Virus record (IMG/VR): IMGVR_UViG_3300029118_000008
Length of the DNA stretch: 53,152 nucleotides
DNA from: a virus
Direction: 5' to 3' (one strand)
A model generated the notes under the pieces. It was given only the letters and a program-made list of their open reading frames with translations, ran no database searches and had not been told where the DNA came from. The first letter of the stretch is position 1. Each line of letters starts with the position of its first letter. This document shows, in pieces, positions 1,096 through 28,870 of this stretch. The position numbers were made by a program, and so were the translations under genes.

Positions 1096-2145
1096 CTACT
1101 TGGACACAGAAGTCAACATACTTTCGACCTTTCGGATGGCGTTTTCTTCCTTTTTTTCCGTGAGATGTGCATATATCCGCATTATCATCGTCTCATCCTC
1201 ATGCCCCATCCAGCGCGCGGCAGTTTTAATGTCAACATCCGCATTATAAAGCATCGTCGCAAAAGTATGTCTGCAATCGTGCTGCCTGATTACCACATTT
1301 CTCCCCGCAATTTTTGATAGATGATTTTGGTAACGCTTCCACGCATCGGTTACAGCACTGAAAGAAATAATTTTGTTATCTTTCGATATTATCACGCTTC
1401 CGTGTCGCCCTTGCAAGACATCCCGTAACGGCGGAAACAGCGGCACGTTACGAATACCAGCTTTGGTTTTGGGTACAGTGATAATATAGTCGGAACGTTC
1501 GCGTCGAATCGCCTTTCGGACGTGAATCACACCTTTCTCAAAATCAACATCATCATCAATATCGAGCGCAAGCGCTTCTCCACGCCTAAGCCCTGCATAC
1601 ACCATCACCATCGCGTAAATTCCCATTCTTTCGCTGTCACAAGTATCTCTGATTAGTTTTATTTCCCAATCATCAAGATTGCGGTGCGTCCCTACTTCTC
1701 CTTTCTTTCGCCTAACGTTCTCGCAGGGAGAAATTGCAACTATTCCATCATTTTTTGCAGCGCGGAAAACCGCTCTTGTTGCTTCGGCTATCTTTCTTCG
1801 CGTCCCTTCTCCGCGGTCGGCAAAAGCGTTATAAAGTCGCTGTACATCCGACGGCGTGATTAGTCGCATCTCTGTCTGCGGCAGGATTGATGCTATCTGG
1901 TTAAGGCGTGAGACATATGCATCATATACATTTATTGTCACCTCGCTCTTGTACGTCGGCAGCCACTCCGCCGCGTACTCCGCGAACGTGTACTTCTCCC
2001 GTGGCTTCCTGCCGTATTTTTCCTGTTTCTTGTACTCTTCGCGGGCTGAAAGGGCTTCGGACTGCGTTCGCCCGTAGAACGAGAATCCTTTATATTTGCA
2101 AACGTAACGCCCGTCTGGGCGCTTTTTTAGTGTCTGGCGTGGCAA
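1096..2145 (-). CDS. int: Tyrosine recombinase / phage integrase
   Basis: Catalytic signature LRRGEALAL ... HDCRHTFATML ... MGHEDETMIMRIYAHL (R-H-R-Y), with an N-terminal DGRYVCKY arm-binding-like domain. Probable TTG start at 2145, 8 nt after AAGGAG. The ORF track extends to 2253. Confidence 0.9.
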   Translation of the reverse strand: MPRQTLKKRPDGRYVCKYKGFSFYGRTQSEALSAREEYKKQEKYGRKPREKYTFAEYAAEWLPTYKSEVTINVYDAYVSRLNQIASILPQTEMRLITPSDVQRLYNAFADRGEGTRRKIAEATRAVFRAAKNDGIVAISPCENVRRKKGEVGTHRNLDDWEIKLIRDTCDSERMGIYAMVMVYAGLRRGEALALDIDDDVDFEKGVIHVRKAIRRERSDYIITVPKTKAGIRNVPLFPPLRDVLQGRHGSVIISKDNKIISFSAVTDAWKRYQNHLSKIAGRNVVIRQHDCRHTFATMLYNADVDIKTAARWMGHEDETMIMRIYAHLTEKKEENAIRKVESMLTSVSK

Positions 2146-2320
2146 GTGTATCACTCCTTTTTTCTCATTGTGCCGCAAATCGCAGCAAAGTGCCATCGTA
2201 ATTTGTGAACAAATTGAAAACATTTTGCAAACGCACAGAAAATTTTTTATCATATTTCGCTGTGCGTCAGCATATGGTATTGCGGTGGACGGTAAAAAAT
2301 ACGCGACGGGAGATGAAAAT

Positions 2321-5195: not shown

Positions 5196-5997
5196 CATAA
5201 TATTGCGCGTACCTTGAAGAATGCGAAAACTGGACGCAAGCGTAAACGTCAGAATCGCCATAAAGCCAGAGCGTGACGTATTTTGCGCCGGTTGCATTGG
5301 CGATTTCGCGGCAGTCGATAACATAGCGGTCTGGTGCGGACGGACAAGAAGCATTCGGATTATAGTTGTCCAGCATCTTCCTGCAGTATTCGCCGGACAC
5401 GCTAATGTCGATACTCGGCTTGTCGTAGGGTTCGATGGATGAAATGGAAATCGAAAGCAGATTGACGTTATCGCCGCTGAACTTATCAACGATGTACTGC
5501 AAGTCCTCTTCGGAGTATCGTTCATCTGCAACCCAGTACGAAGTTTGCGCATTCGACGCAAATCGACCGTTGACCTGATGCGGCGTTCCGCCCTTGGAAG
5601 AAAACGCACAATACGCGCCGGAGGACGCGATAGCACTGTGGAAGTACGTTAAGCGCAAGTAGTAGCTGTCACTGCCGACAGAGGTGCGCATAAGCGAATC
5701 GACGGACGAAAACAGCTCGAAAATGTGAGCAAGAAGCTCCTGATATTCTGGCGAATAACTCTTGTAGAGCGATTCCAGAAGCATATATTCGCCCTTGATA
5801 ACAAAGCAGTTCGTTTCCGTGTCGAGCGAAACGTCGTAGGAAATGCCATCTTCTGGTTTGCTTGAGAAGAACTCATTGATAAAGTGCAAGGCAAGCATTT
5901 CGCCGTCGGTGAGGTCGCGTTTCTCGGTCGCAAGGGCGGGGGCAATGGAGAGTGTAAGGCAGCAAAGAACAAGCAGGACGGAAACAAACTTCTTCAT
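5161..5997 (-). CDS. Secreted protein of unknown function (moron in the lysogeny region)
   Basis: N-terminal signal peptide MKKFVSVLLVLCCLTLSIAPALA|TEK. No catalytic motif recognised. Confidence 0.65.
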   Translation of the reverse strand: MKKFVSVLLVLCCLTLSIAPALATEKRDLTDGEMLALHFINEFFSSKPEDGISYDVSLDTETNCFVIKGEYMLLESLYKSYSPEYQELLAHIFELFSSVDSLMRTSVGSDSYYLRLTYFHSAIASSGAYCAFSSKGGTPHQVNGRFASNAQTSYWVADERYSEEDLQYIVDKFSGDNVNLLSISISSIEPYDKPSIDISVSGEYCRKMLDNYNPNASCPSAPDRYVIDCREIANATGAKYVTLWLYGDSDVYACVQFSHSSRYAQYYVKDYRYLRIAP

Positions 5998-6034
5998 CGT
6001 GATGATACCCCTTTCGTGTTTTGGAGGTGTGAAC

Positions 6035-8684: not shown

Positions 8685-8975
8685 ATGAGCGATGAAGTTA
8701 TCAAGGTGCGAATCGCAAACCGTCTGCTGGACGAGTACGGCAAGGACATCCAGAGCCAGTGCATGGGCGGGTGTGTGTCGCGCGGTGACGCGAACAAGGC
8801 GATTTTCGCCATTCGCCAGAGTGCGCGGAAGCTGAAAGCCATGACGCGCGACGAGTTCGCGAAGCTGGGGAACTGGGACTATATCAGCGAGGCATACGGC
8901 GCGTATGAAGCCGTAATGGAAGCCCTGCTGTTGGCGGTTAAGTACGAGATGGACAAGACGGCGGTAGCCGTCTAA
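8685..8975 (+). CDS. Hypothetical protein
   Basis: ATG at 8685 after AAAGGGG, in the 8517..8975 frame. No motif found. Confidence 0.5.
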   Translation: MSDEVIKVRIANRLLDEYGKDIQSQCMGGCVSRGDANKAIFAIRQSARKLKAMTRDEFAKLGNWDYISEAYGAYEAVMEALLLAVKYEMDKTAVAV

Positions 8976-8990
8976 GGGAGGGAAAAGAAA

Positions 8991-9314
8991 ATGAAAATCC
9001 TGAATCTTGAGAAAATCGTGCCGGACGAGGAAGCCAGGAAGGAACTCTTTGAGCAGCACATGATGGAAACCACGCTGCGGCTCAATGCGCCGCGCATCAT
9101 CCGCGAACTCGACAACGCTTGCGATAGCAAGCGCACCGCCGACCGCATTTGGAAGATTATCTGGATGGACGTACGGAGCGGGAAGGTGAAGGACTACGGA
9201 GCCTTTCAGAAGGTTTTCCCCGGCGAATTTGATGCCTACGTTGTCTACGGAGACATCATGAATAAGCTGCTTGAAGAAATCAGCGACAAGATGGGGGCGC
9301 TTTGGAATGACTGA
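8991..9314 (+). CDS. Hypothetical protein
   Basis: 107-aa ORF with an SD (GGAGGGAAAAG). Co-oriented in the early operon. Confidence 0.55.
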   Translation: MKILNLEKIVPDEEARKELFEQHMMETTLRLNAPRIIRELDNACDSKRTADRIWKIIWMDVRSGKVKDYGAFQKVFPGEFDAYVVYGDIMNKLLEEISDKMGALWND

Positions 9315-9654
9315 CTTCCAGCGAGCAACCGGGGTAACGATGCAGCCGGAGGAAGGCAAGGGCTTGCGCTGGTGTCCAATCGACGCGGTAATCGTCAAGC
9401 AGATTCGGGCGCATCTGGGAGACAGCGCCGCAATGCGGATTGTCTACGACGCCGTCTGCAATATGGCGGGCATCAACACGCCGGACGACATCACCAAGCT
9501 GACGTTTGAGCGGGCGTATAGCCGCGCATTGTCCGAGACGGGGCGGTATCAGGCGGGGGAGATTGACGCACAGGGCAACTTTATCGCGGAAGTAATCGCG
9601 ACGGCTTTCGCCCTTGCACCTAATGAAATAATAACACAGAAAGAGGTGAAATAA
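9307..9654 (+). CDS. Hypothetical protein
   Basis: The ATG at 9307 overlaps the previous stop (ATGA). Confidence 0.5.
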   Translation: MTDFQRATGVTMQPEEGKGLRWCPIDAVIVKQIRAHLGDSAAMRIVYDAVCNMAGINTPDDITKLTFERAYSRALSETGRYQAGEIDAQGNFIAEVIATAFALAPNEIITQKEVK

Positions 9655-17164: not shown

Positions 17165-18036
17165 GCAGAAAAACAAAGATAGATTGGGCAGACAGCACAT
17201 GGAATCCTGTAACTGGTTGCCGGCACAGCTGCGAATACTGCTATGCGCGAAAGATTGCGGAGCGGTTCGGCGGCGTGTATTACGAGGACGAGCTGCCAAA
17301 CCGCTGGGGTGAATATGAGTGCGAACGCCTACACGCAGATGGAGACTTACATGAGCTTGATTATCCGCTCAAGAATTACGGAAATAACAAAATAGCCCCG
17401 TATCCCTTTGAGTTCGACCCCACCTTCTACCGCTACAAGCTGGATGAGCCGCAGCGCTGGAAAAAGCCACGCACCATCTTTGTGTGCAGTATGGCAGACC
17501 TGTTCGGCGACTGGGTTCCAGATGAATGGATTGCGGAAGTATTCATGGCGTGCGAAGCCGCGCCGCAGCATCGGTATTTGTTCCTGACAAAAAATCCAGC
17601 CAGACTGTGCAAAATGGCGAGCGCCTATAAAGTAAAGCGCTGGAATGAAACGCATGGAGGGAAGACACATCCGCAGACGGCAGAATACGCGCATACGCTC
17701 GTTCTCCCAAGCCATGAAAACTGGTGGTTTGGAAGCACGCTGGACAACAAAAATGCCAGAAGATTCCAAGGGGATAACCATTTTCACACGTTTACGAGCA
17801 TTGAGCCGCTAACCGAGGACATGGACGTTGGGCTTGGTTCTTTCGGCTCGGACGAATGGGTAATCATCGGCGCAGAAACGGGCAATCGAAAAGGCAAGAT
17901 TACTCCAAAGCGCGAATGGGTTGAAAATATCGTCGAAGCCGCACAGATTACTGGCATGAAGGTGTTCATGAAAGAGAGCCTTCGCGAACTTATGGGAAAC
18001 GACTTCCGGCAGGAAACGCCCTGGGAGGGAAAATGA
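17161..18036 (+). CDS. Phage Gp37/Gp68 (DUF5131) radical-SAM-like protein
   Basis: Characteristic start KIDWADSTWNPVTGCRHSCEYCYARK with a CX3CX2C motif. ATGA overlaps on both sides. Confidence 0.7.
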   Translation: MSRKTKIDWADSTWNPVTGCRHSCEYCYARKIAERFGGVYYEDELPNRWGEYECERLHADGDLHELDYPLKNYGNNKIAPYPFEFDPTFYRYKLDEPQRWKKPRTIFVCSMADLFGDWVPDEWIAEVFMACEAAPQHRYLFLTKNPARLCKMASAYKVKRWNETHGGKTHPQTAEYAHTLVLPSHENWWFGSTLDNKNARRFQGDNHFHTFTSIEPLTEDMDVGLGSFGSDEWVIIGAETGNRKGKITPKREWVENIVEAAQITGMKVFMKESLRELMGNDFRQETPWEGK

Positions 18037-18758
18037 CGTTAGGCAGTCTTTTTGATGGGAGCGGAGGTTTTCCTCTTGCGGGGGCGCTCTCCGGAATCCG
18101 CCCGGTCTGGGCGGCGGAGGTGGAGCCGTACCCCATTGCGGTGACGCGCTCCCGCTTTCCCATGATGCAGCACCTCGGCAGCGTGACCGAGGTGCATGGC
18201 GACAAGGTACAGCCGGTGGATGTGATTACGTTCGGAAGCCCTTGCCAAGACCTTTCTGTTGCTGGCAAGCGCGCAGGCATCCATGACGGTCAGCGCTCGA
18301 ATCTGTTTTTTGAAGCAATCCGAATTATAAAGGAAATGAGGGCAGCAACTAATGGACGGTATCCAACTTTCGCTGTTTGGGAAAACGTGCCCGGAGCCTT
18401 CTCTTCAAACCAGGGAGAGGACTTCCGATGCGTCCTCCAAGAGTTTGTTGGAATCTGCGGGAACGGCACAGTACCTCGACCTGACAAAGGCAAATGGAAA
18501 TCAGCCGGAGAGGTCGTGGGCGACGGATACAGCGTCGCGTGGCGGCAACTCGACGCGCAATACTGGGGAGTGCCCCAGCGTCGCAAGAGAATCTACCTTG
18601 TGGCAGATTTTGCAGGCGGACGCGCCGGAAAAATACTATTTGAGCGCGAGGGCCTGCAAGGGCATCCTGCGGCGTGCGGAACGACGGGGCAAGGCGCTGC
18701 CGCCGATGCTCCTGGAAGCGCTGGAGGAAGCCGTGGCATTGAATGCTGGAAACGTTAA
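18033..18758 (+). CDS. dcm: DNA (cytosine-5) methyltransferase, N-terminal catalytic part (motifs I, IV, VI, VIII)
   Basis: LFDGSGG (I), GSPCQDLS (IV), WENVPG (VI), QRRKR (VIII). After ~18660 the frame decays into A/G-rich sequence and stops at 18758. Confidence 0.8.
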   Translation: MTLGSLFDGSGGFPLAGALSGIRPVWAAEVEPYPIAVTRSRFPMMQHLGSVTEVHGDKVQPVDVITFGSPCQDLSVAGKRAGIHDGQRSNLFFEAIRIIKEMRAATNGRYPTFAVWENVPGAFSSNQGEDFRCVLQEFVGICGNGTVPRPDKGKWKSAGEVVGDGYSVAWRQLDAQYWGVPQRRKRIYLVADFAGGRAGKILFEREGLQGHPAACGTTGQGAAADAPGSAGGSRGIECWKR

Positions 18759-19509
18759 AAGCGCGCAGCAGCCGAATTGCGTCTGCTATCCGCAGGTTGC
18801 CCGGACGCTGACGGCAGAAGCGGATGCGTCCACCTGCATCGACCGTGGCCAGAACGTTGTGTGCTACGACGCATGCGGGAACGGCGACGGGGCGCACTGC
18901 CAGACGTTGACCGGTGACCACGAGAACCGCGTGACGGATTACACGGCGGTCACAGTATATCGCAGCCCGAAAATTGGAGAGTATGCCGCTGATGGCACAG
19001 CATCCACAATGGCAGCGCGAGATTTCAAAAGTCCTCGCGATTTGGTTGTCGAACATACTCCCGTCTACGGCATGGACTGCCGAAACGCCGTATTGGACGA
19101 AGAAAAAACGCACACGCTGCAAGCCAAGGCGAATGGCGAACAAAGCCTGAACTGTACGCCCAGCGTTTTGATGGACGGAAGGCCGCCGCGCAAGTACATC
19201 ATCCGCCGCCTGACGCCGCTGGAATGCTGCCGCTTGCAGGGCTTCCCCGACGGGTGGGGCGTCCCCGACCACAAGGACAGGCTGTCAGAGGAAGAGCTGG
19301 CGTTCTGGCAAGGAGTGCGCGACACTTGCTCGCTCATCGCGGGCAAACCGTCCAAGAAATACAGCGCGGAAACGCTGACCAAGTGGTATAACGCCCTGCA
19401 CACGGATAGTGCAGAGTACAAAATGTGGGGCAACGGCATCGCACTTCCATGCGCGGCGTTCGTGTTGGGCGGCGTCGCCGAAACCCTGATGGAGGAAAAG
19501 CAAAAATGA
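18352..19509 (+). CDS. dcm: DNA (cytosine-5) methyltransferase, target-recognition + C-terminal part (motifs IX, X), in the +1 frame
   Basis: PEKYYLSARACKGILRRAERRGKALP, RRLTPLECCRLQGFPDGW (IX), WGNGIALP (X). The true N-terminus is unknown: a frameshift junction or a TTG start at 18598. Confidence 0.7.
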   Translation: MDGIQLSLFGKTCPEPSLQTRERTSDASSKSLLESAGTAQYLDLTKANGNQPERSWATDTASRGGNSTRNTGECPSVARESTLWQILQADAPEKYYLSARACKGILRRAERRGKALPPMLLEALEEAVALNAGNVKSAQQPNCVCYPQVARTLTAEADASTCIDRGQNVVCYDACGNGDGAHCQTLTGDHENRVTDYTAVTVYRSPKIGEYAADGTASTMAARDFKSPRDLVVEHTPVYGMDCRNAVLDEEKTHTLQAKANGEQSLNCTPSVLMDGRPPRKYIIRRLTPLECCRLQGFPDGWGVPDHKDRLSEEELAFWQGVRDTCSLIAGKPSKKYSAETLTKWYNALHTDSAEYKMWGNGIALPCAAFVLGGVAETLMEEKQK

Positions 19510-21625: not shown

Positions 21626-21739
21626 GCAAAAATCGCAAAAAAATGTGATTTGCCCCTTGACATATACGGTAGTATATGCTATAATAAATAGTGTCAAGGG
21701 GCGGTAAAAAAGAACCCCGGACAGAAAGAGGTAAGAAAA
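21623..21739 (+). promoter_or_regulatory. Cassette copy 1: A-tract upstream element + perfect promoter + conserved 5' leader hairpin + SD
   Basis: tttgcaaaaatcgcaaaaaaatgtgatttgcc. TTGACA at 21657-62, N17 (containing CATATAC-N4-GTATATG), TATAAT at 21680-85. Leader atagtgtcaaggggcggtaaaaaagaaccccggacagaaagaggtaag. Confidence 0.7.
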
Positions 21740-22051
21740 ATGGAAAAAACTCGTAAGTTGGACGTAGAAAGTCAGTACGACCATTTCGTTGTGGAAATCG
21801 AAGTCGTTGACGGAGTTTGCGATGGCTATCGCAGTTTTATCGCCGCTTGTGACGGCGCTTATTACGACGGAAGTTCCTATAAATACGACGGAAGTTCCTA
21901 TAAAGAAGCAAAAGCGATGTATGATAAACTCGCCAAATACGAAGACGGCATACATGGTGCCGTTATTTTGATAGCGCACAACATCGAGTGCGATGATTGG
22001 GATACGCTGGAAACAAACGAAATCAATGATGTTTGTCAGGACGAAGAATAA
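21740..22051 (+). CDS. Small acidic orphan protein with an internal YDGSSYK duplication
   Basis: 103 aa, D/E-rich, ending ...CDDWDTLETNEINDVCQDEE. First gene behind cassette copy 1. Confidence 0.6.
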   Translation: MEKTRKLDVESQYDHFVVEIEVVDGVCDGYRSFIAACDGAYYDGSSYKYDGSSYKEAKAMYDKLAKYEDGIHGAVILIAHNIECDDWDTLETNEINDVCQDEE

Positions 22052-22140: not shown

Positions 22141-22223
22141 TTGACATATACGGCAGTATATGCTATAATAATAGTGTCAGAAGGGCGGTACAAAAAAAGC
22201 CCCCGACAGAAAGAGGTAAGACA
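22141..22223 (+). promoter_or_regulatory. Cassette copy 2: perfect promoter + conserved leader
   Basis: TTGACA at 22141-46, N17 (CATATACGGCAGTATATG), TATAAT at 22164-69. Leader aatagtgtcagaagggcggtacaaaaaaagcccccgacagaaagaggtaag. Confidence 0.7.
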
Positions 22224-22649
22224 ATGACTGATAAAGCAAAAAGCGCGGCGCTGTTTGAACAGCACCGCCAAATGACCAAGGCGTGGGAAGCGCAAATGGA
22301 CGCACTCGCCAAAGAAGAAAGCATCACCGACGAGGAATACGAACAGAAGCTCATGGAGCTTTACAATCAACACAAAGAAAAAGCGGATGCGGTTTGGCTG
22401 AAAGCGTTTGCACTGCGATTTCCGAAGCGCAAGGGCTGGTTCGCGGACGTTTTCGCGCCTTCGTTCGGGATTTGCGAAAACAAGAAACTTTCGCCGAAGC
22501 AAACACAAGTGTTCATCGACTACTGCATCAGTGATGCGGATACATGGCGGAATGGCAATACGTACTGCCGGTTTGGAGACAAGCTGGTAACGCTCACTCG
22601 CCCGCGTTACGCAAATGGATGCGGGTACGTTACAATAAGGCAACTGTAA
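22224..22649 (+). CDS. Orphan protein (141 aa)
   Basis: ATG at 22224 lies 6 nt after the conserved AGAGGTAAG. The longer ORF-track reading (from 21993) would run through the promoter. Confidence 0.6.
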   Translation: MTDKAKSAALFEQHRQMTKAWEAQMDALAKEESITDEEYEQKLMELYNQHKEKADAVWLKAFALRFPKRKGWFADVFAPSFGICENKKLSPKQTQVFIDYCISDADTWRNGNTYCRFGDKLVTLTRPRYANGCGYVTIRQL

Positions 22650-23115: not shown

Positions 23116-23123
23116 TAGCATGG

Positions 23124-23150
23124 GGCGCATCCGCTGGGGTGCGCCTTTTT
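23124..23150 (+). terminator. Rho-independent terminator
   Basis: GGCGCA-tccgctgggg-TGCGCC followed by TTTTT. Confidence 0.7.
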
Positions 23151-23164
23151 CGTTGCGCAAAAAG

Positions 23165-23284
23165 TTTGCAAAAATCGCAAAAAAAATGTGATTTGCCTCT
23201 TGACATATACGGCAGTATATGCTATAATAATAGTGTCAGGAGGGCGGTACAAATAAAAGCCCCCGACAGAAAGAGGTAAGAATT
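23165..23284 (+). promoter_or_regulatory. Cassette copy 3: upstream element + perfect promoter + conserved leader
   Basis: tttgcaaaaatcgcaaaaaaaatgtgatttgcc. TTGACA at 23200-05, N17, TATAAT at 23223-28. Leader aatagtgtcaggagggcggtacaaataaaagcccccgacagaaagaggtaag. Confidence 0.7.
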
Positions 23285-23494
23285 ATGAAGTTCGCGAGCA
23301 TCAAGAAGGGCATCCGCATCACCGAGGAAATGAAAAAGAAGCTGGCAGCCAATTGGTTCTGCGAAACGAAAACGTACTGCTACGAGTTGCAGTACGGGGA
23401 CGAAACGATGGATGGCGACTACGAGCGCAGCATCGTTCGCTGGAAGAAAGGCGAAGAGTACAAGCCTTCCGAAGTCGTTGCAACGCTGGCGTGA
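23285..23494 (+). CDS. Small orphan protein (69 aa)
   Basis: First gene behind cassette copy 3. Confidence 0.55.
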   Translation: MKFASIKKGIRITEEMKKKLAANWFCETKTYCYELQYGDETMDGDYERSIVRWKKGEEYKPSEVVATLA

Positions 23495-23516
23495 ACAGGA
23501 AGGAGGAGCAAGCACC

Positions 23517-23828
23517 ATGTCAAACGAAGAAATCATCGCCAAGTCCGCCATCAGCGCGGGCATCTTCTCCGAAGAGGAAGCCGCAGCCTACATCATGAAC
23601 GGGTTGCGCCTCCCGATTCACACCTTCGCCGAGTGGAAGAATCACGGGTACATGGTTAAAAAGGGCGAACACGCCGCGCTGGTCGTGAGCATCTGGAAGC
23701 CCAAGACGCGCAAGCAGAAGAAGGACGACGAAAAGAACGTTGACGCAAAGGAAGAAAATAGCGGGTTCTTCATGACGACCGCCTACTTGTTCACCAAGCA
23801 GCAGGTGGAAGCAATCAAGCCCGCATAA
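23517..23828 (+). CDS. ArdC-N-terminal-like (ssDNA-binding, anti-restriction-type) protein
   Basis: PIHTFAEWKNHGYMVKKGEHAALVVSIWK resembles the (T/W)FxQWxxxGxxVxKGEK core of the ArdC N-domain. ATG after AGGAAGGAGGAG. Confidence 0.35.
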   Translation: MSNEEIIAKSAISAGIFSEEEAAAYIMNGLRLPIHTFAEWKNHGYMVKKGEHAALVVSIWKPKTRKQKKDDEKNVDAKEENSGFFMTTAYLFTKQQVEAIKPA

Positions 23829-24056: not shown

Positions 24057-24169
24057 TTGGAAGAGGCGACTATGGAAGTGCTGCTCTTGCCTCTTCAGCG
24101 GCGGGATTTATGCGCGATGCGCTTTGTTGCGTTGGTGGGGACGCGACGGAAGAAGAGGAGGGAAAACCA

Positions 24170-24679
24170 TTGCTTGACTGGAACGGCATCAAAATCGTCG
24201 AAACGGATTGTATGCTGCCGATTGACCGCGTGAAACCATACGCGAGAAACGCAAAGCGGCATCCGCAGGAGCAAATCGACGAAATCAAGGCAAGCATCAA
24301 GCGGTTCGGAATGGACGACCCCATCGGCATCTGGGGCAAGGAAAACCTGATTGTAGAGGGTCACGGGCGGATGGAAGCGTGCAAGCAGCTCGGCATCCCC
24401 ACAGTGCCGTGCATTCGCCTTGACCACCTGACGAAGGAAGAGCGCAAGGCGTACACACTGGCGCACAACAAAACCAACATGGACAGCGGCTGGGACTTTA
24501 CGGCGCTCGACCAAGAGCTGGCGGAAATCGTTGATATTGACATGAGCGAGTTCGGTTTCGGTGCTTCCGTGGGGGGGCAAGAAGTCAACATTGACGAGCT
24601 GTTTGCGGCAAATGGAGAAGAGAAAAAGAAAACCAAAACTATAACATGTCCTCATTGCGGGCAAACTTTCGAGCCATAA
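24170..24679 (+). CDS. ParB/Srx N-terminal-domain protein with a C-terminal zinc ribbon (DpdB-like position)
   Basis: LPIDRVKPYARNAKRHPQEQIDEIKASIKRFGMDDPI...IVEGHGRMEACKQLG is a ParBc-type pattern. C-terminal ITCPHCGQ. TTG at 24170 after GAGGAGGG. Confidence 0.65.
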   Translation: MLDWNGIKIVETDCMLPIDRVKPYARNAKRHPQEQIDEIKASIKRFGMDDPIGIWGKENLIVEGHGRMEACKQLGIPTVPCIRLDHLTKEERKAYTLAHNKTNMDSGWDFTALDQELAEIVDIDMSEFGFGASVGGQEVNIDELFAANGEEKKKTKTITCPHCGQTFEP

Positions 24680-25518
24680 TGCGAATTTTTCTAGCTGGGG
24701 GGGTATCTGGGAATCTCAAACCGCTATGGGATGATGTTGCAGAAGGGAAAGACTTATCGGAAGCGATGAATGTTTTTTTAGCTGGGAATGCTCCTTATAG
24801 GAATGAAGGCTTATACGATACAACAATCACAACAAACCGCCCATATATTCTCGAATCGTTCTATTACGCAGATGCAACAACAGAAAAGCTCATTCCATAT
24901 TACGGCGACTTTCTATTGGACAGCGGAGCTTTCACATTTATGATGGGAAGCAAAAATTGCAAAACGTTAAAATGGAACGAATATGCTGATAAATACGCTG
25001 ACTTTATTAAGCGAAATAACGCAAAAAAGTACTTCGAGCTTGACATAGACAGCATCGTTGGATATGAGCAAGTAAAAATCCTGCGAAATCGCTTGCAAAA
25101 AACTACTGGCATTCAGCCGATACCCGTATGGCATAAAAGCCGCGGGAAAGACGAATTTTTGCGGATGGTTGACGAGTACAAGTACGTCGCACTCGGTGGA
25201 ATCGTCAGCAAAGAATGGAGCAAAGATGAACACAAATTCTTTCCGTGGTTCATCAATGAAGCGCATAAGCGCAATGCCAAAATCCACGGTTTGGGTTACA
25301 CAAGCCTCGAAGGATTGAAGAAATATCATTTTGATAGCGTAGATTCGACAGCATGGACGACTGGAAATAGATTTGGGTACATTTACAAATTTGATGGTTC
25401 GACTATGAAGAAATATGATGCTCCGCAAGGGCATAGATTAGCAGATTCACGCAAAGCCGCGCTAATTAACTTTGGCGAATGGGTGAAATTTCAAAAATAT
25501 GCGGAGGTGCATTTGTGA
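24679..25518 (+). CDS. dpdA: DpdA-family (tRNA-guanine-transglycosylase-like) DNA 7-deazaguanine transglycosylase
   Basis: FLLDSGAFTFM (TGT catalytic-Asp motif xDSGGF), YVALGGIVS (LGGL-like) and HFDSVDSTAW (FDCV-like). TAATG overlap with the ParB-like gene. Confidence 0.65.
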   Translation: MRIFLAGGVSGNLKPLWDDVAEGKDLSEAMNVFLAGNAPYRNEGLYDTTITTNRPYILESFYYADATTEKLIPYYGDFLLDSGAFTFMMGSKNCKTLKWNEYADKYADFIKRNNAKKYFELDIDSIVGYEQVKILRNRLQKTTGIQPIPVWHKSRGKDEFLRMVDEYKYVALGGIVSKEWSKDEHKFFPWFINEAHKRNAKIHGLGYTSLEGLKKYHFDSVDSTAWTTGNRFGYIYKFDGSTMKKYDAPQGHRLADSRKAALINFGEWVKFQKYAEVHL

Positions 25519-25751
25519 ATTATGAAATCGTCGGAATCATAGCCACCATTGTGGTTTTGCTTTCCTTCACAAAGACAAAATGTGAAAGAATCAGAATCGT
25601 AAATATGGTTGGTGCGGCAATATATTGCCTGTATGGGCATCTAATCAAGTCACCAAGCACGATAATCCTGAACGGTGCATTGATAGCTATACATACATTT
25701 TTTCTCGTTAAGAAAGTGAGGGAACCACATGAAAAACCACAAGACTTCTGA
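25515..25751 (+). CDS. Small 3-TM membrane protein (SemiSWEET/YgjV-like topology)
   Basis: Three hydrophobic helices in 78 aa. GTG at 25515 lies 7 nt after GGAGG and overlaps the dpdA stop (GTGA). Confidence 0.45.
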   Translation: MNYEIVGIIATIVVLLSFTKTKCERIRIVNMVGAAIYCLYGHLIKSPSTIILNGALIAIHTFFLVKKVREPHEKPQDF

Positions 25752-26373
25752 ACTCCAAACGGTTCTTACCGTTACTTTTGTTGCTTGTTTCTTGATTGCA
25801 AACATTCTTGCAGGGAAACAGTTCCAATTGCCATTCGGCATCACGATGACGGGTGCAGTAATAATCTTTCCGATGACGTATATTCTTTCGGATATATTTT
25901 CAGAGGTGTACGGTTATCGGTGGAGCAGATTAACGTGTTACATGGCATTCGGGGCAAATATCCTGATGGCTATTGTATTTGCCATTGCTATCGCGCTTCC
26001 TGCTGCGCCATTCTGGATGAACCAAGAAGGATTTTCCGCGACGTTAGGCAACGCGCCGCGAATCCTGCTTGCGTCGCTGGCGGGATATGTCGTCGGTGAT
26101 TACGCAAACGATATTGTGTTCCAGATAATGAAAAAAAAGCACGAAAACACAATTAAGGGGTTCGGCAGCAGGGCAATTCTTTCAAGCGTTATCGGTGAAC
26201 TCGCAGATAGCACAATTTTCATCCCGATTGCGTTTGCCGGAGAAATGCCTATCGAATCAATGCTTATCATGGGTGCAACACAGGTTATTCTAAAAGTCGC
26301 CTATGAAATCATCATTCTACCACTGACAAATTTTGTTGTCAAGAGGGTATCCGTGCATGAAGCAAGAGCCTGA
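25729..26373 (+). CDS. yhhQ: YhhQ/VUT-family queuosine-precursor (preQ0/preQ1) transporter
   Basis: Polytopic membrane protein. IANILAGKQF...GAVIIFPMTYILSDIFSEVYGYRWSR and ...SSVIGELADSTIFIPIAF match the DUF165/YhhQ family pattern. Confidence 0.7.
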   Translation: MKNHKTSELQTVLTVTFVACFLIANILAGKQFQLPFGITMTGAVIIFPMTYILSDIFSEVYGYRWSRLTCYMAFGANILMAIVFAIAIALPAAPFWMNQEGFSATLGNAPRILLASLAGYVVGDYANDIVFQIMKKKHENTIKGFGSRAILSSVIGELADSTIFIPIAFAGEMPIESMLIMGATQVILKVAYEIIILPLTNFVVKRVSVHEARA

Positions 26374-27106
26374 TTTTAACCTCGACATCCCGGAAATCCA
26401 CCTCCCAGACACAATCGAGCTTGACGACGATATAGACTTCTCCGTCGCTGACTTCTCCATCGTAGACGATGAAGAGCAGACGCGCATCATAAAGCCCAAG
26501 ATGGCAAAGTCGGCAATCTACAACAAGGCGGATTTTCAGCACGCACGCGACCTTGCCGCAAAAATTTGTCTGGAACGCAATGCACGGACTACCTGCATCG
26601 TTCCGGGCAATTTCATTTTTGGCGACTTGCCGGAAGCACTTGTAATGTATCGCGGCATCGACCTCAAAACAATCTACTGCTCAACGTTGTCACTGTCGGA
26701 AAACAACGTGGACAGCTTCAAAAACCTGCTGCTTTTCCGCAACGTGGAGAAAATCAATCTGATGCTATCCGGATACTTCTACAGCCACTACAAAACGGAT
26801 TTAATTCCGTACTTGTATGAGGAATTGGACATAGACAACAAATTGCAAGTGGCGTTCACCAACACACACATGAAAATCCTGCTGATGGAAACGCACAAGG
26901 GGAATCATTATGTGCTGACGGGGAGCGCGAATTTGCGGAGCGCGTCTTGCCTGGAACAATTCGACTTCGAGGAGAACGCGGAGCTGTTCAACTTCTACCG
27001 GGAAGCGTTCGACAACCTCATTGACAAGTACAAAACAATCAACTACACGAAACCAAAAATCGTAAGGGGGAATAAAGCATGGCAAGCGGTTCGGGGCGAG
27101 CGCTAA
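26357..27106 (+). CDS. PLD-superfamily (HKD-motif) protein with an acidic N-terminal tail
   Basis: A single HxK...GSxN motif: HMKILLMETHKGNHYVLTGSANLRS. The N-terminus is D/E-rich. Confidence 0.55.
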   Translation: MKQEPDFNLDIPEIHLPDTIELDDDIDFSVADFSIVDDEEQTRIIKPKMAKSAIYNKADFQHARDLAAKICLERNARTTCIVPGNFIFGDLPEALVMYRGIDLKTIYCSTLSLSENNVDSFKNLLLFRNVEKINLMLSGYFYSHYKTDLIPYLYEELDIDNKLQVAFTNTHMKILLMETHKGNHYVLTGSANLRSASCLEQFDFEENAELFNFYREAFDNLIDKYKTINYTKPKIVRGNKAWQAVRGER

Positions 27107-27218: not shown

Positions 27219-27602
27219 ATGCCGAGAGGAACTCATCCTAATAGCCTTGCAAACCTGCAAAAGGGGAAAAGGTTCGGGAGCGGGAAGGACGGGGCGACGA
27301 GTGACGCGAGGAAAGCGCACGAAAAAGCAACGCAGGCGCGCAAAGCAAATTTTACCGTCAAGGAGCTGATGCTCAATCTGCTTGACGAGCCGTTGCAAAA
27401 TGGCGGGACGTTGCGAGAAGCACTTGTGAAACGCACCGTCAAAATGGCAGCAGACGGGAATTTACCCGCTTTTCAGTATATCATGCGGATTATCGGGGAA
27501 GACCCCGGAGACGTTGTGACCGTCAAAGCGCCGCAGTTGTCCGAGGACGCGAAAGCAGACATTGACAAGCTGCTGAAAGAAACGCGGGGAGAAGTAAAAT
27601 GA
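27219..27602 (+). CDS. terS: Terminase small subunit
   Basis: MPRGTHPNSLANLQKGKRFGSG... is a typical TerS N-terminus. Directly upstream of terL with an ATGA overlap. Confidence 0.7.
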   Translation: MPRGTHPNSLANLQKGKRFGSGKDGATSDARKAHEKATQARKANFTVKELMLNLLDEPLQNGGTLREALVKRTVKMAADGNLPAFQYIMRIIGEDPGDVVTVKAPQLSEDAKADIDKLLKETRGEVK

Positions 27603-28870
27603 CGACGCTGACGCGGGATGAAGTGTGGAACATTTGGCGATACCATCCCGCCGCCGTCGGAAGAATGTGCGGATTCCGTGACTTAACGGACGAGCTTCAC
27701 GGACGCTGGATGCAGCACATCATCTTCGGAGCGGACGATTACACGCTTCAAGCGCACCGCCTGTCCTACAAGTCTTCCTGCCTTTCCGTCGCTTTGGCAA
27801 TGTGGTGCGTTCTCAACCACGGAAAAAACGCGATTTTTATGCGAAAAACCGACAGCGACGTTGTGGAGAGCATCGCACAGGCGAAAAAGGTATTCGCGAA
27901 CGAGGCTTTTTGCTACATGGCGCAAATCCTCATGCAGCAGGACGTGACGCTGCTGAAATCTGGCGGCAACTGTATGACGGTGAGCGTGTACGATTCGCCG
28001 CGCGGCGCTGACCAGCTAATCGGCATCGGCTGCGGTTCGTCCATGACGGGCAAGCACGCGGATTTGATTGTATGTGACGACGTTGTAAACCTCAACGACC
28101 GCATCAGCCGCGCAGAACGAGAGCGCACAAAGGGAGTTATCCAGGAGCTGCGAAACATCGTCACCCGCGACGGGCGAATCGTCTTTATCGGCACACCGTG
28201 GCACATCGAGGACGCGTTCACGATGGTTGCACCGCCGGAAAAGCACGACTGCTATTCCACCGGGTTGATTTCGCCGGAGAAGCTGGAAGAGCTGCGGAAA
28301 TCAATGTCGCCGTCGCTGTTTGCCGCGAACTACGAGTTGCGCCACATCGCCGCCGAAAACGCGCTGTTCGACACGCCGCCGACGTTCACGCCGGAGGCGG
28401 AAAAGCTGCGGGACGGCATCGCGCACGTTGATGCTGCCTATGGCGGCGAGGACTACACCGCGCTGACGTGCGCCAAGAGGGACGGTGACACGCTGTACTT
28501 GTACGGGCGTTTGTGGCGCAAGCACGTTGATACGCTGATGGACGCACTGCAATCGGAGACGGATCGCCTCATGTGCGCCCCGATTTACTGCGAGACAAAC
28601 GGCGACAAGGGGTATTTGGCGCGGGAATTGCGCCGCCGAAACATGGCGGTACGCGCGTACCCGGAGAAAATGAACAAGTACCTAAAAATCAGCACATACC
28701 TCAAAAAGTGGTGGGGGAATATCGTGTTTTTGGAAGGAACAGACAGGGACTATATCGCGCAGATTATGGACTACACAGAGGACGCGGAACACGACGACGC
28801 GCCGGACAGCGCCGCGTGCTGCTGCCGGATTCTCGACAGGAGCGGCGCGAGTTTGTATGTTGGGGGGTGA
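27599..28870 (+). CDS. terL: Terminase large subunit
   Basis: Size and position fit. ATPase-like ...KSSCLSVALAMW / ADLIVCDDVVN and a nuclease half IVFIGTPWHIEDAF. Confidence 0.8.
   Translation: MTTLTRDEVWNIWRYHPAAVGRMCGFRDLTDELHGRWMQHIIFGADDYTLQAHRLSYKSSCLSVALAMWCVLNHGKNAIFMRKTDSDVVESIAQAKKVFANEAFCYMAQILMQQDVTLLKSGGNCMTVSVYDSPRGADQLIGIGCGSSMTGKHADLIVCDDVVNLNDRISRAERERTKGVIQELRNIVTRDGRIVFIGTPWHIEDAFTMVAPPEKHDCYSTGLISPEKLEELRKSMSPSLFAANYELRHIAAENALFDTPPTFTPEAEKLRDGIAHVDAAYGGEDYTALTCAKRDGDTLYLYGRLWRKHVDTLMDALQSETDRLMCAPIYCETNGDKGYLARELRRRNMAVRAYPEKMNKYLKISTYLKKWWGNIVFLEGTDRDYIAQIMDYTEDAEHDDAPDSAACCCRILDRSGASLYVGG

Follow-up and report, generated by a model that had tools for sequence, protein, structure and literature searches.

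Can a phage protect its DNA with a modified base that it does not make, and if so, which of its genes take part? The question is raised by five tightly packed genes just upstream of terS in a virus genome, IMG/VR record IMGVR_UViG_3300029118_000008, of which we analyzed a stretch of 53,152 nucleotides (nt), referred to as the window throughout. A preliminary description, made from the letters of the sequence, had taken the five genes as one candidate 7-deazaguanine DNA-modification system dependent on salvaged precursor. Our open reading frame (ORF) check (24110-27106) confirmed that all five genes are real, lie on the plus strand and overlap or abut one another upstream of terS. They form two units, a modification cassette at 24110-26373 and a PLD-like gene at 26357-27106. 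The cassette is probably a self-contained, horizontally swappable anti-restriction system that exchanges some guanines of the phage's own double-stranded DNA for a 7-deazaguanine base which the phage does not synthesize; as judged from homology and gene context, on which all functional statements about the cassette rest, the cluster would be a known phage strategy in a version that relies on salvage. The five genes are the following:

24110-24679, plus strand: stand-alone ParB/Srx (CTPase-fold) protein of 189 amino acids (aa); phrog_620, E 1e-44
24679-25518, plus strand: DpdA-family DNA-guanine transglycosylase, 279 aa; phrog_887 'queuine tRNA-ribosyltransferase', E 3.7e-55
25515-25751, plus strand: three-helix membrane protein of the single-repeat YgjV/MtN3 (SWEET) type; Imp-YgjV, E 6e-4
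25729-26373, plus strand: YhhQ/VUT importer of queuosine precursors (7-deazaguanine bases), 214 aa; Vut_1 and TIGR00697
26357-27106, plus strand: single-HKD PLD-superfamily (Nuc/NucT-like) phosphodiesterase; HKD motif, AlphaFold2 (AF2) model and Foldseek; first gene of the packaging block

The ParB-like and DpdA genes meet in a shared TAATG and the DpdA gene meets the three-transmembrane (3-TM) gene in a shared GTGA; the 3-TM and YhhQ ORFs overlap by 23 nt, the YhhQ and PLD ORFs by 17 nt, and 112 nt separate the PLD gene from terS. The ParB-like gene most likely starts at the ATG at 24110 and not at 24170, as previously annotated, because the additional N-terminal residues are conserved at the protein level in sibling phages. 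For the 3-TM gene, both a GTG at 25515 (78 aa) and an ATG at 25479 (90 aa) are available as starts.

The transglycosylase and its supply of base

A tblastn search with the DpdA-like protein matched 159 phage records, those of CAjan, Seurat and Iggy among them, with about 24% identity to CAjan DpdA, an enzyme whose deletion abolishes all preQ0 modification in that phage (PMC7544227). When a profile of 35 homologues was compared with CAjan DpdA by hhalign (run with -norealign), the two aligned over 234 columns with a probability of 100% and an E of 3.2e-41. Invariant columns among the 35 homologues include D81 (in LDSGAF), D122, H203-L205-G206 and D222 (in SVDS), and the LDSGAF and S-x-DS motifs of CAjan fall in the same columns of the profile. 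The membership in the DpdA family that had been proposed from the motifs LDSGAF, ALGG and FDSVDS, all of which we found in the protein, is thus borne out by the alignment with CAjan DpdA and by the invariant catalytic Asp positions. In bacterial DpdA, three residues invariant in both tRNA-guanine transglycosylase (TGT) and DpdA serve as general acid/base (Asp95), in base binding (Asp130) and as nucleophile (Asp256) (PMC10164549), and D81, D122 and D222 fit this triad. A weak match to the NCBIfam DpdA model, pairing residues 167-225 with profile positions 199-258, places D222 near Asp256; the bacterial DpdA models match the protein marginally, with E of 0.009 (NCBIfam) and 0.005 (PADLOC). Enzymes of the tRNA-guanine transglycosylase type typically have a Cys-rich zinc site. 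The window protein has one Cys only and thus lacks such a site. An hhalign comparison of the DpdA profile with E. coli TGT, which aligned 15 columns only, was regarded as an artefact and not used, and phmmer found no match to the protein among PDB sequences.

The product of 25729-26373 exceeded the curated cut-offs of Pfam Vut_1 (E 1.4e-40; 139.5 bits, cut-off 27.2) and of TIGR00697, 'queuosine precursor transporter' (106.6 bits, cut-off 50.95), as expected for the YhhQ/VUT transporter that it had been called, so that profile searches upheld the family assignments of both this protein and the transglycosylase. Against the E. coli-type model NF008406 it reached 30.5 bits (cut-off 252), so it is not orthologous to the E. 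coli protein. Hidden Markov models (HMMs) of QueC, QueD, QueE, FolE and DUF5591 found nothing at E<=1 among six-frame ORFs with 40 aa or more, which agrees with the earlier observation that folE, queD, queE and queC are missing from the window. The precursor must therefore be imported or host-supplied.

To place this gene content in context, we collected 47 IMG/VR loci, 80 GTDB species-genome loci and annotated phages, and annotated their ORFs with local HMMs; Que annotations were verified with Pfam on two loci. Among the 128 DpdA loci, counted without de-replication, YhhQ was found near DpdA in 64 and at least three of QueC, QueD, QueE and FolE in 44. Both were present in 2 loci and neither YhhQ nor que genes in 18. 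YhhQ and the synthesis genes take the same position, directly after DpdA, and such near-exclusive occupation of one position is the pattern expected if each is an alternative source of base. Within this sample, YhhQ-only loci were mostly from Clostridia, Synergistaceae, Peptoniphilus, Peptostreptococcus and the Fusobacterium phage phiFN37, and synthesis-type loci mostly from Bacteroidales, Veillonella and Staphylococcus.

A third flavour of the cassette was observed in six loci (L008, L009, L060, L063, L078 and L081), which carry ParB-like, DpdA, QueC and YhhQ genes without QueD, QueE or FolE. This suggests either that an earlier intermediate, such as CDG, is imported and converted by QueC, or that a QueC-like amidotransferase makes a different base. 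A DUF5591-containing protein is encoded in the DpdA cassettes of L012-L014 (after QueC) and L015 (after YhhQ). The DUF5591 domain also occurs in the archaeosine synthase ArcS, and its presence hints that some cassettes further modify preQ0, for example to dG+.

Phage YhhQ, and phages with DpdA only that may draw on host or imported preQ0, have already been reported in the literature (PMC6884629, PMC7544227). An alternative to import by the phage is that the base comes from the preQ0 pool of the host, with YhhQ and the 3-TM protein as dispensable extras, as in CAjan. In that phage a ΔyhhQ mutant keeps wild-type modification, and some preQ0 of host origin is incorporated in ΔfolE and ΔqueC mutants (PMC7544227). 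Furthermore, the 18 loci with neither YhhQ nor que genes, such as the ParB-DpdA pair of Faecalibacterium prausnitzii (L099), must rely on something not encoded beside DpdA. However, CAjan has the full synthesis pathway and is hence an unfair test of a YhhQ-only cassette, and the near-exclusive distribution of YhhQ and synthesis genes argues that the importer is not a mere extra. We therefore regard supply from the host pool alone as unlikely.

The preliminary description had also listed the 3-TM protein as a possible transporter component, and this was borne out as likely by its synteny with YhhQ and its YgjV/MtN3-type homologues. The protein itself scored 20 bits against Pfam Imp-YgjV, just under the cut-off of 23.5, which is passed by the close homologue P0122 (27.3 bits) and by two-repeat relatives (up to 43 bits); one homologue also matches MtN3_slv (SWEET). 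Its AF2 model shows three helices with a predicted local distance difference test (pLDDT) score of 92.7. A word-indexed homologue search retrieved one near-identical protein only, and a full HMMER search (1.84 billion proteins) returned 497 representative homologues, many of them 70-100 aa long; some contain a duplication or a fusion to AAA_33-like or GNAT-like domains. The gene was detected in 11 DpdA loci, 10 of which also carry YhhQ. The three best homologues looked up among the HMMER hits all adjoin YhhQ. Two of these three are flanked by DpdA and YhhQ; the phage that carries them has a different terminase and lacks a PLD gene in the interval from YhhQ to terL. Because both the homologues and 10 of the 11 loci pair the 3-TM gene with YhhQ, it is likely a real, optional part of the import arm, acting as an accessory to YhhQ or as a second importer. 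Our literature search found no function for YgjV. As for the fused homologues, C-terminal extensions matched AAA_33 (P-loop kinase-like) below threshold in P0134, AAA_24 very weakly in P0149 and GNAT acetyltransferase barely above the cut-off in P0184; should the fusions be real, they would bring to mind substrate trapping coupled to transport.

The ParB-like protein and its exchangeable partners

The core of the ParB-like protein contains an NxxR box (N47, the Box I Asn), a GxxRxxA motif (Box II, G84-H-G-R87-M-E-A90) and N120 (the Box III Asn), and is followed by a C-terminal tail with an IDELF motif and a CPHC knuckle. Among 33 DpdA-linked homologues N47, G84 and N120 do not vary, and at least 90% keep R87. 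A profile built from these 33 sequences matched the N-domains of ParB/Spo0J/Noc CTPases with E of 2e-15 to 2e-11, aligning GHtRlkA with GERRWRA, whereas the single sequence reached 20.5 bits against Pfam ParB_N (cut-off 26.3). The protein also matches the N-termini of phage methyltransferases (phrog_498, E 2e-38; PADLOC MTase_II, E 9e-24). We rejected a canonical ParB partition protein, for which TIGR00180 gave 26.1 bits against a cut-off of 58.45 with the N-domain alone aligned; a non-exhaustive scan of the window proteins returned no ParA-like family.

This gene had been likened to dpdB, the partner of dpdA in bacteria, and here the earlier view had to be abandoned in one respect and kept in another. 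The protein is not a DpdB orthologue. It gave no match at E<=0.1 in NCBIfam or PADLOC (assuming that both include DpdB models), it has GxxRxxA and not DGQQR, its 189 aa leave out a second domain, and a core 81-86% identical to its own serves other enzymes, as described below. Its pairing with DpdA is conserved. A ParB-like ORF immediately precedes DpdA in each of the 38 first-round loci (profile E 1e-75 to 8e-7) and in 110 of the 128 loci overall, usually with overlapping stop and start codons; it is missing mainly at contig ends, in CAjan and in those DpdA relatives that are most distant. The pairing is kept whether YhhQ or synthesis genes follow, and is also found in cultured phages, namely the Fusobacterium phage phiFN37 and the Arthrobacter phage Sonali. 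A loose hydrophobic-acidic-F/L motif, represented by IDELF in the window, is present in the tails of 31 of the 33 DpdA-linked ParB-like proteins; the two motif matches in the Sonali protein lie outside the tail and look incidental. The tails of the YhhQ-type ParB-like proteins also carry a single CPHC knuckle.

Additional ParB-like genes were seen in several loci. Some phages have two in tandem before DpdA (L008, 221-1251; L222, 1260-2214). phiFN37 (L001) has three stand-alone copies within 8 kb (2060-2566, 5525-6010 and 8928-9416), the first of which adjoins a PAPS-reductase-like gene that might encode another modification enzyme.

What accompanies the ParB-like gene in closely related phages? 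A search with the PLD family yielded 48 same-lineage loci; their PLD proteins show 86% identity or more, and terL was detected downstream every time. DpdA occupies the slot upstream of PLD in only 7 of the 41 same-lineage loci with enough upstream DNA. We compared the slots of sibling phages with PLD proteins at least 91% identical and terL of equal length. In three of them (L142, L149 and L175) the ParB-like core is 81-86% identical to that of the window, up to its end at DMSEFGFGA, and is followed by a C5 DNA methylase and an S-adenosylmethionine (SAM) methyltransferase, by a ParB-methyltransferase fusion and by a radical-SAM protein, respectively. In L152 the core is 83% identical and fused directly to an N6/N4 methylase, and in L182 a divergent ParB-like protein (35% identical) precedes a TET-associated glycosyltransferase (TAGT). 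Exactly after EFGFGA, where the core ends, the tail of the ParB-like protein switches along with the partner enzyme. From these comparisons we infer that the core may be a generic module engaging DNA and nucleoside triphosphate (NTP) and the tail a partner-specific adaptor, making the protein DpdB-like in action without being DpdB. More generally, the slot between an ArdC-like gene and PLD/terS/terL is a hotspot for alternative DNA-modification cassettes (L142, L149, L152, L155, L175 and L182), each of which starts with a ParB-like protein or domain.

Such a hotspot also leaves room for a ParB-like protein that has nothing to do with DpdA and acts in partition, as a nuclease or at the packaging site. 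Stand-alone ParB folds are very common in phages and, together with ParB-methyltransferase fusions, have been surveyed with their function called unknown (bioRxiv 10.1101/2025.10.10.680097; PMC12783734); moreover, the core is common to cassettes with other enzymes. Nevertheless, the 110 of 128 adjacencies extend across phages of Clostridia, Bacteroidales, Veillonella, Staphylococcus, Fusobacterium and Arthrobacter, and the ParB sequences involved are as little as ~20% identical, so the adjacency is not due to recent common descent. The same domain is also physically fused to DNA methyltransferases, and the tail co-varies with the partner enzyme. An unrelated ParB-like protein therefore seems to us improbable.

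The sibling slots also bear on whether the target is DNA at all. The cassette could be an auxiliary metabolic one for tRNA queuosine, in which YhhQ imports the base and the TGT-like enzyme acts on tRNA, tuning translation; DpdA is a paralogue of TGT, and it has been proposed that phages with preQ0-pathway genes but no DpdA might raise host queuosine (PMC6884629). We give this explanation little credence, as the enzyme aligns end to end with the DNA-acting CAjan DpdA, it has as its obligate neighbour a protein with the ParB fold, of a kind that is also fused to DNA methyltransferases, the sibling slot holds DNA methyltransferases and once a TAGT DNA-glycosyltransferase, and DpdA cassettes commonly lie just upstream of packaging genes.

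The PLD-like gene and the surrounding genome

In the PLD-like protein, H171, K173, G189, S190, A191 and N192 are invariant among 58 sequences, and the match to Pfam PLDc_2 is sub-threshold. The AF2 model (pLDDT 80.8) matched PDB structures of SauUSI (E 8e-07), Zucchini, NucT and Nuc (8e-05) with a Foldseek probability of 1.00, as well as PPK domains; in BFVD it matched an Arthrobacter phage 'NucT-like nuclease' (E 1.3e-10). The acidic stretch that had been placed in a tail is N-terminal (residues ~1-45, with low pLDDT). Detectable homologues of the family number 653; none of them has a precomputed Pfam domain, and any that bear a source name are called hypothetical.

Where does this gene belong? 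In 48/48 close and 29/34 distant loci, terL lies no more than 4.5 kb after PLD. Upstream of PLD, DpdA is present in the 7/41 close loci mentioned above and in 0/25 distant ones, and PLD is found in only 4 of the 128 DpdA loci. Four unrelated phages or prophages, with different terminase families, carry PLD directly before a small ORF and terL with no DpdA in the locus. Because terL follows nearly always and DpdA precedes rarely, the PLD gene belongs to a packaging-proximal block and stands outside the modification cassette, and we rejected it as the module partner for which it had been taken; it is a conserved gene before terS/terL, mostly without DpdA. It could be a terminase-associated nuclease, in analogy to the HNH genes before terS, a host-DNA nuclease or an anti-defence factor. 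The further idea that this nuclease tells modified from unmodified DNA, which would turn the five genes into a modification-plus-attack system, finds some appeal in the 17-nt overlap with yhhQ and in the best PDB fold match, the nuclease domain of the modification-dependent restriction enzyme SauUSI, but is made very improbable by these context counts and by the four DpdA-free loci.

As a lead toward the modification module the PLD-like nuclease was thus a false one, yet it represents an uncharacterized family worth study in itself. It is very common before terS/terL across terminase families, with 501 tblastn-confirmed IMG/VR stretches (for example L051, L054, L055, L057 and L140-L219). In several distant loci a ParB-domain protein of ~440-480 aa, the size of the sibling ParB-methyltransferase fusions, lies between PLD and terL.

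ORF and family scans identified the window as a temperate tailed phage genome. It has genes for repressor-like regulators and for replication and recombination proteins of the Gam-like, Erf-like and DnaB-like types, and its packaging and structural arm begins at terS. A near-identical contig exists (IMG/VR UViG_3300045988_087019), and a nucleotide search with the 3.5-kb region returned no match among 50,697 phage records. The search for tRNA genes found none in the window, which therefore offers no att-site clue. The features that frame the cassette are these:

1096-2253, minus strand: integrase (family scan)
23200-23287, plus strand: sigma-70-type promoter, TTGACA-17-TATAAT, with 5' leader and ribosome-binding site (RBS); consensus at 12/12 positions
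23412-23828, plus strand: ArdC-N-like protein (anti-restriction, single-stranded-DNA-binding domain); Pfam ArdcN, E 1e-06, 29.4 bits, cut-off 22.6
27219-27602, plus strand: terS, after the PLD gene
27599-28870, plus strand: terL; phrog_38 terminase large subunit, E 4.6e-64

The promoter at 23200-23287, with a terminator-like hairpin just 5' of it (23122-23147), probably heads the transcription unit containing the cassette; a 69-aa ORF and the ArdC-N-like gene also lie within this unit. The ArdC-N-like gene adjoins the ParB-like gene upstream, and is found as well in the closest three DpdA-bearing relatives (L004-L006, 77-78% identity), for which reason the region looks like an anti-defence island. 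The promoter belongs to a module of ~90-100 nt present in three direct copies (21657-21742, 22141-22227 and 23200-23287). Each copy comprises a TTGACA-17-TATAAT promoter that is perfect or nearly so, a conserved leader containing a GC-rich, hairpin-like element, GACAGAAAGAGGTAAGA (the RBS) and a start codon, and each heads a small gene cassette, the third copy heading the unit with the DpdA cassette. Further upstream, DNA methyltransferase PHROGs are matched by each of two plus-strand ORFs, 18033-18758 and 18352-19509, which overlap in different frames and may represent a frameshifted or programmed-frameshift methyltransferase or two stacked methyltransferase genes.

Proposed mechanism and comparison with known systems

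How might the cassette work? Upon prophage induction the unit would be transcribed, possibly from the 23200 promoter. Judging from the function of its family, YhhQ in the host membrane would import a free base (preQ0, preQ1 or queuine), and the SemiSWEET-like 78-aa protein, which is syntenic with it, may act with YhhQ as an accessory subunit or second importer. After replication, DpdA would swap guanine for the imported base by the double displacement of TGT, with D222 as the predicted nucleophile and D81 as the predicted general acid/base, in keeping with its homology and conservation. The ParB-like protein is a candidate NTP-binding DNA-loading or processivity factor bringing DpdA to DNA; its core would engage DNA and nucleotide, and its variable tail (hydrophobic-D-x-F-F and CPHC knuckle) would dock the enzyme, a role suggested by the pairing and the swapping of tails and resembling that of DpdB in aiding bacterial DpdA, without orthology. 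The modified genome would then be packaged.

A more specific version of this scheme is tentative, and we think it somewhat less likely than not. It joins three proposals: that a conserved, NTP-gated, DNA-engaging ParB core carries an exchangeable C-terminal docking tail, which moves into the pre-packaging slot together with its enzyme (DpdA, C5- or N6-methyltransferase, radical-SAM protein or glycosyltransferase); that the phage DpdA clade needs its ParB-like helper as bacterial DpdA needs DpdB; and that the 78-aa SemiSWEET-like protein and YhhQ form a previously unrecognized two-component importer of 7-deazapurines.

Several observations weigh against the proposed cassette or parts of it. On the side of the enzyme, the search of PDB sequences with the DpdA profile was weak, with 7ui4 at E~1 next to spurious Homer-domain matches, and the loci were counted without de-replication. 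On the side of the ParB-like protein, no recognizable helix-turn-helix DNA-binding domain was found, CAjan has no such gene beside dpdA and the DpdA enzyme of phage 9g reportedly works without such a helper; a helper requirement is thus not a given here. On the side of import, comparison of the 3-TM model with SWEET/SemiSWEET structures by Foldseek ranked them near the top with a non-significant E>1, the loss of yhhQ left modification unaffected in CAjan, which also synthesizes preQ0 (PMC7544227), and the host might supply preQ0.

Modification of DNA with 7-deazaguanines is an already known anti-restriction strategy of phages. The characterized phage systems synthesize the base and, to our knowledge, rely on DpdA alone. 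What emerges here is a widespread clade, found for the most part in gut and rumen samples, in which DpdA is paired with a ParB-fold protein and which comes in interchangeable versions that make or import the base. It offers a handle on why bacterial DpdA needs a ParB-like NTPase, on the role of the abundant stand-alone ParB folds of phages and on whether phages scavenge environmental queuosine precursors, a micronutrient shared between microbiome and host, for genome protection. The preliminary description did not recognize the combination as described, and this holds in part: phage DpdA, YhhQ and DpdA-only phages are already published, but two features were not found described, namely a ParB-fold partner shared as a module with other DNA-modifying enzymes and a SemiSWEET-like partner of YhhQ. 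Our literature search, whose coverage was incomplete, returned no paper linking a ParB fold to phage DpdA.

Among known systems, the PLD-like protein resembles Nuc, NucT and Zucchini in its HxK...GSxN motifs and its modelled PLD-family nuclease fold, and differs from them in its disordered acidic N-terminus and its fixed place before terS/terL. Similarly, the 3-TM protein, with its 78 aa and three transmembrane helices, resembles SemiSWEET/YgjV (MtN3-like) triple-helix-bundle transporters, and its longer relatives have two repeats; unlike these transporters, and with a non-significant fold match, it is part of a DNA-modification cassette, always together with a VUT-family transporter. The ParB-like protein has the same kind of domain (phrog_498, PADLOC MTase_II) as ParBc-methyltransferase fusions and ParBc proteins beside CmoX, yet its partner is a separately encoded base-exchanging transglycosylase, a pairing that we found in no paper.

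The bacterial Dpd system of Salmonella Montevideo (DpdA, DpdB and DpdC) likewise pairs DpdA with a protein of the ParB-superfamily NTPase fold, and DpdB has to be active as an ATPase for preQ0 to be inserted (PMC10164549). DpdB is a ~44 kDa protein (~400 aa) with DGQQR and an SspE-like C-terminal domain, in contrast to the 189 aa, GxxRxxA and short tail of the window protein; moreover, the window has none of the dpdC-K genes, and its DpdA fits the bacterial model only marginally. Closest in purpose are the phage DpdA1 systems of Escherichia phages CAjan and 9g and Pseudomonas phage Iggy, which exchange guanine for 7-deazaguanines after replication and thereby block restriction (PMC6884629, PMC7544227, PMC10484667). 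The window cassette shares with them the full-length homology of the transglycosylase and, with CAjan, the conserved catalytic Asp residues and a YhhQ homologue. It differs from CAjan in its ParB-like gene upstream of dpdA and in the extra 3-TM partner of YhhQ, and from the phage DpdA1 systems as a group in having no folE, queD, queE or queC and in its setting, a swappable slot beside the packaging genes of a temperate gut phage.

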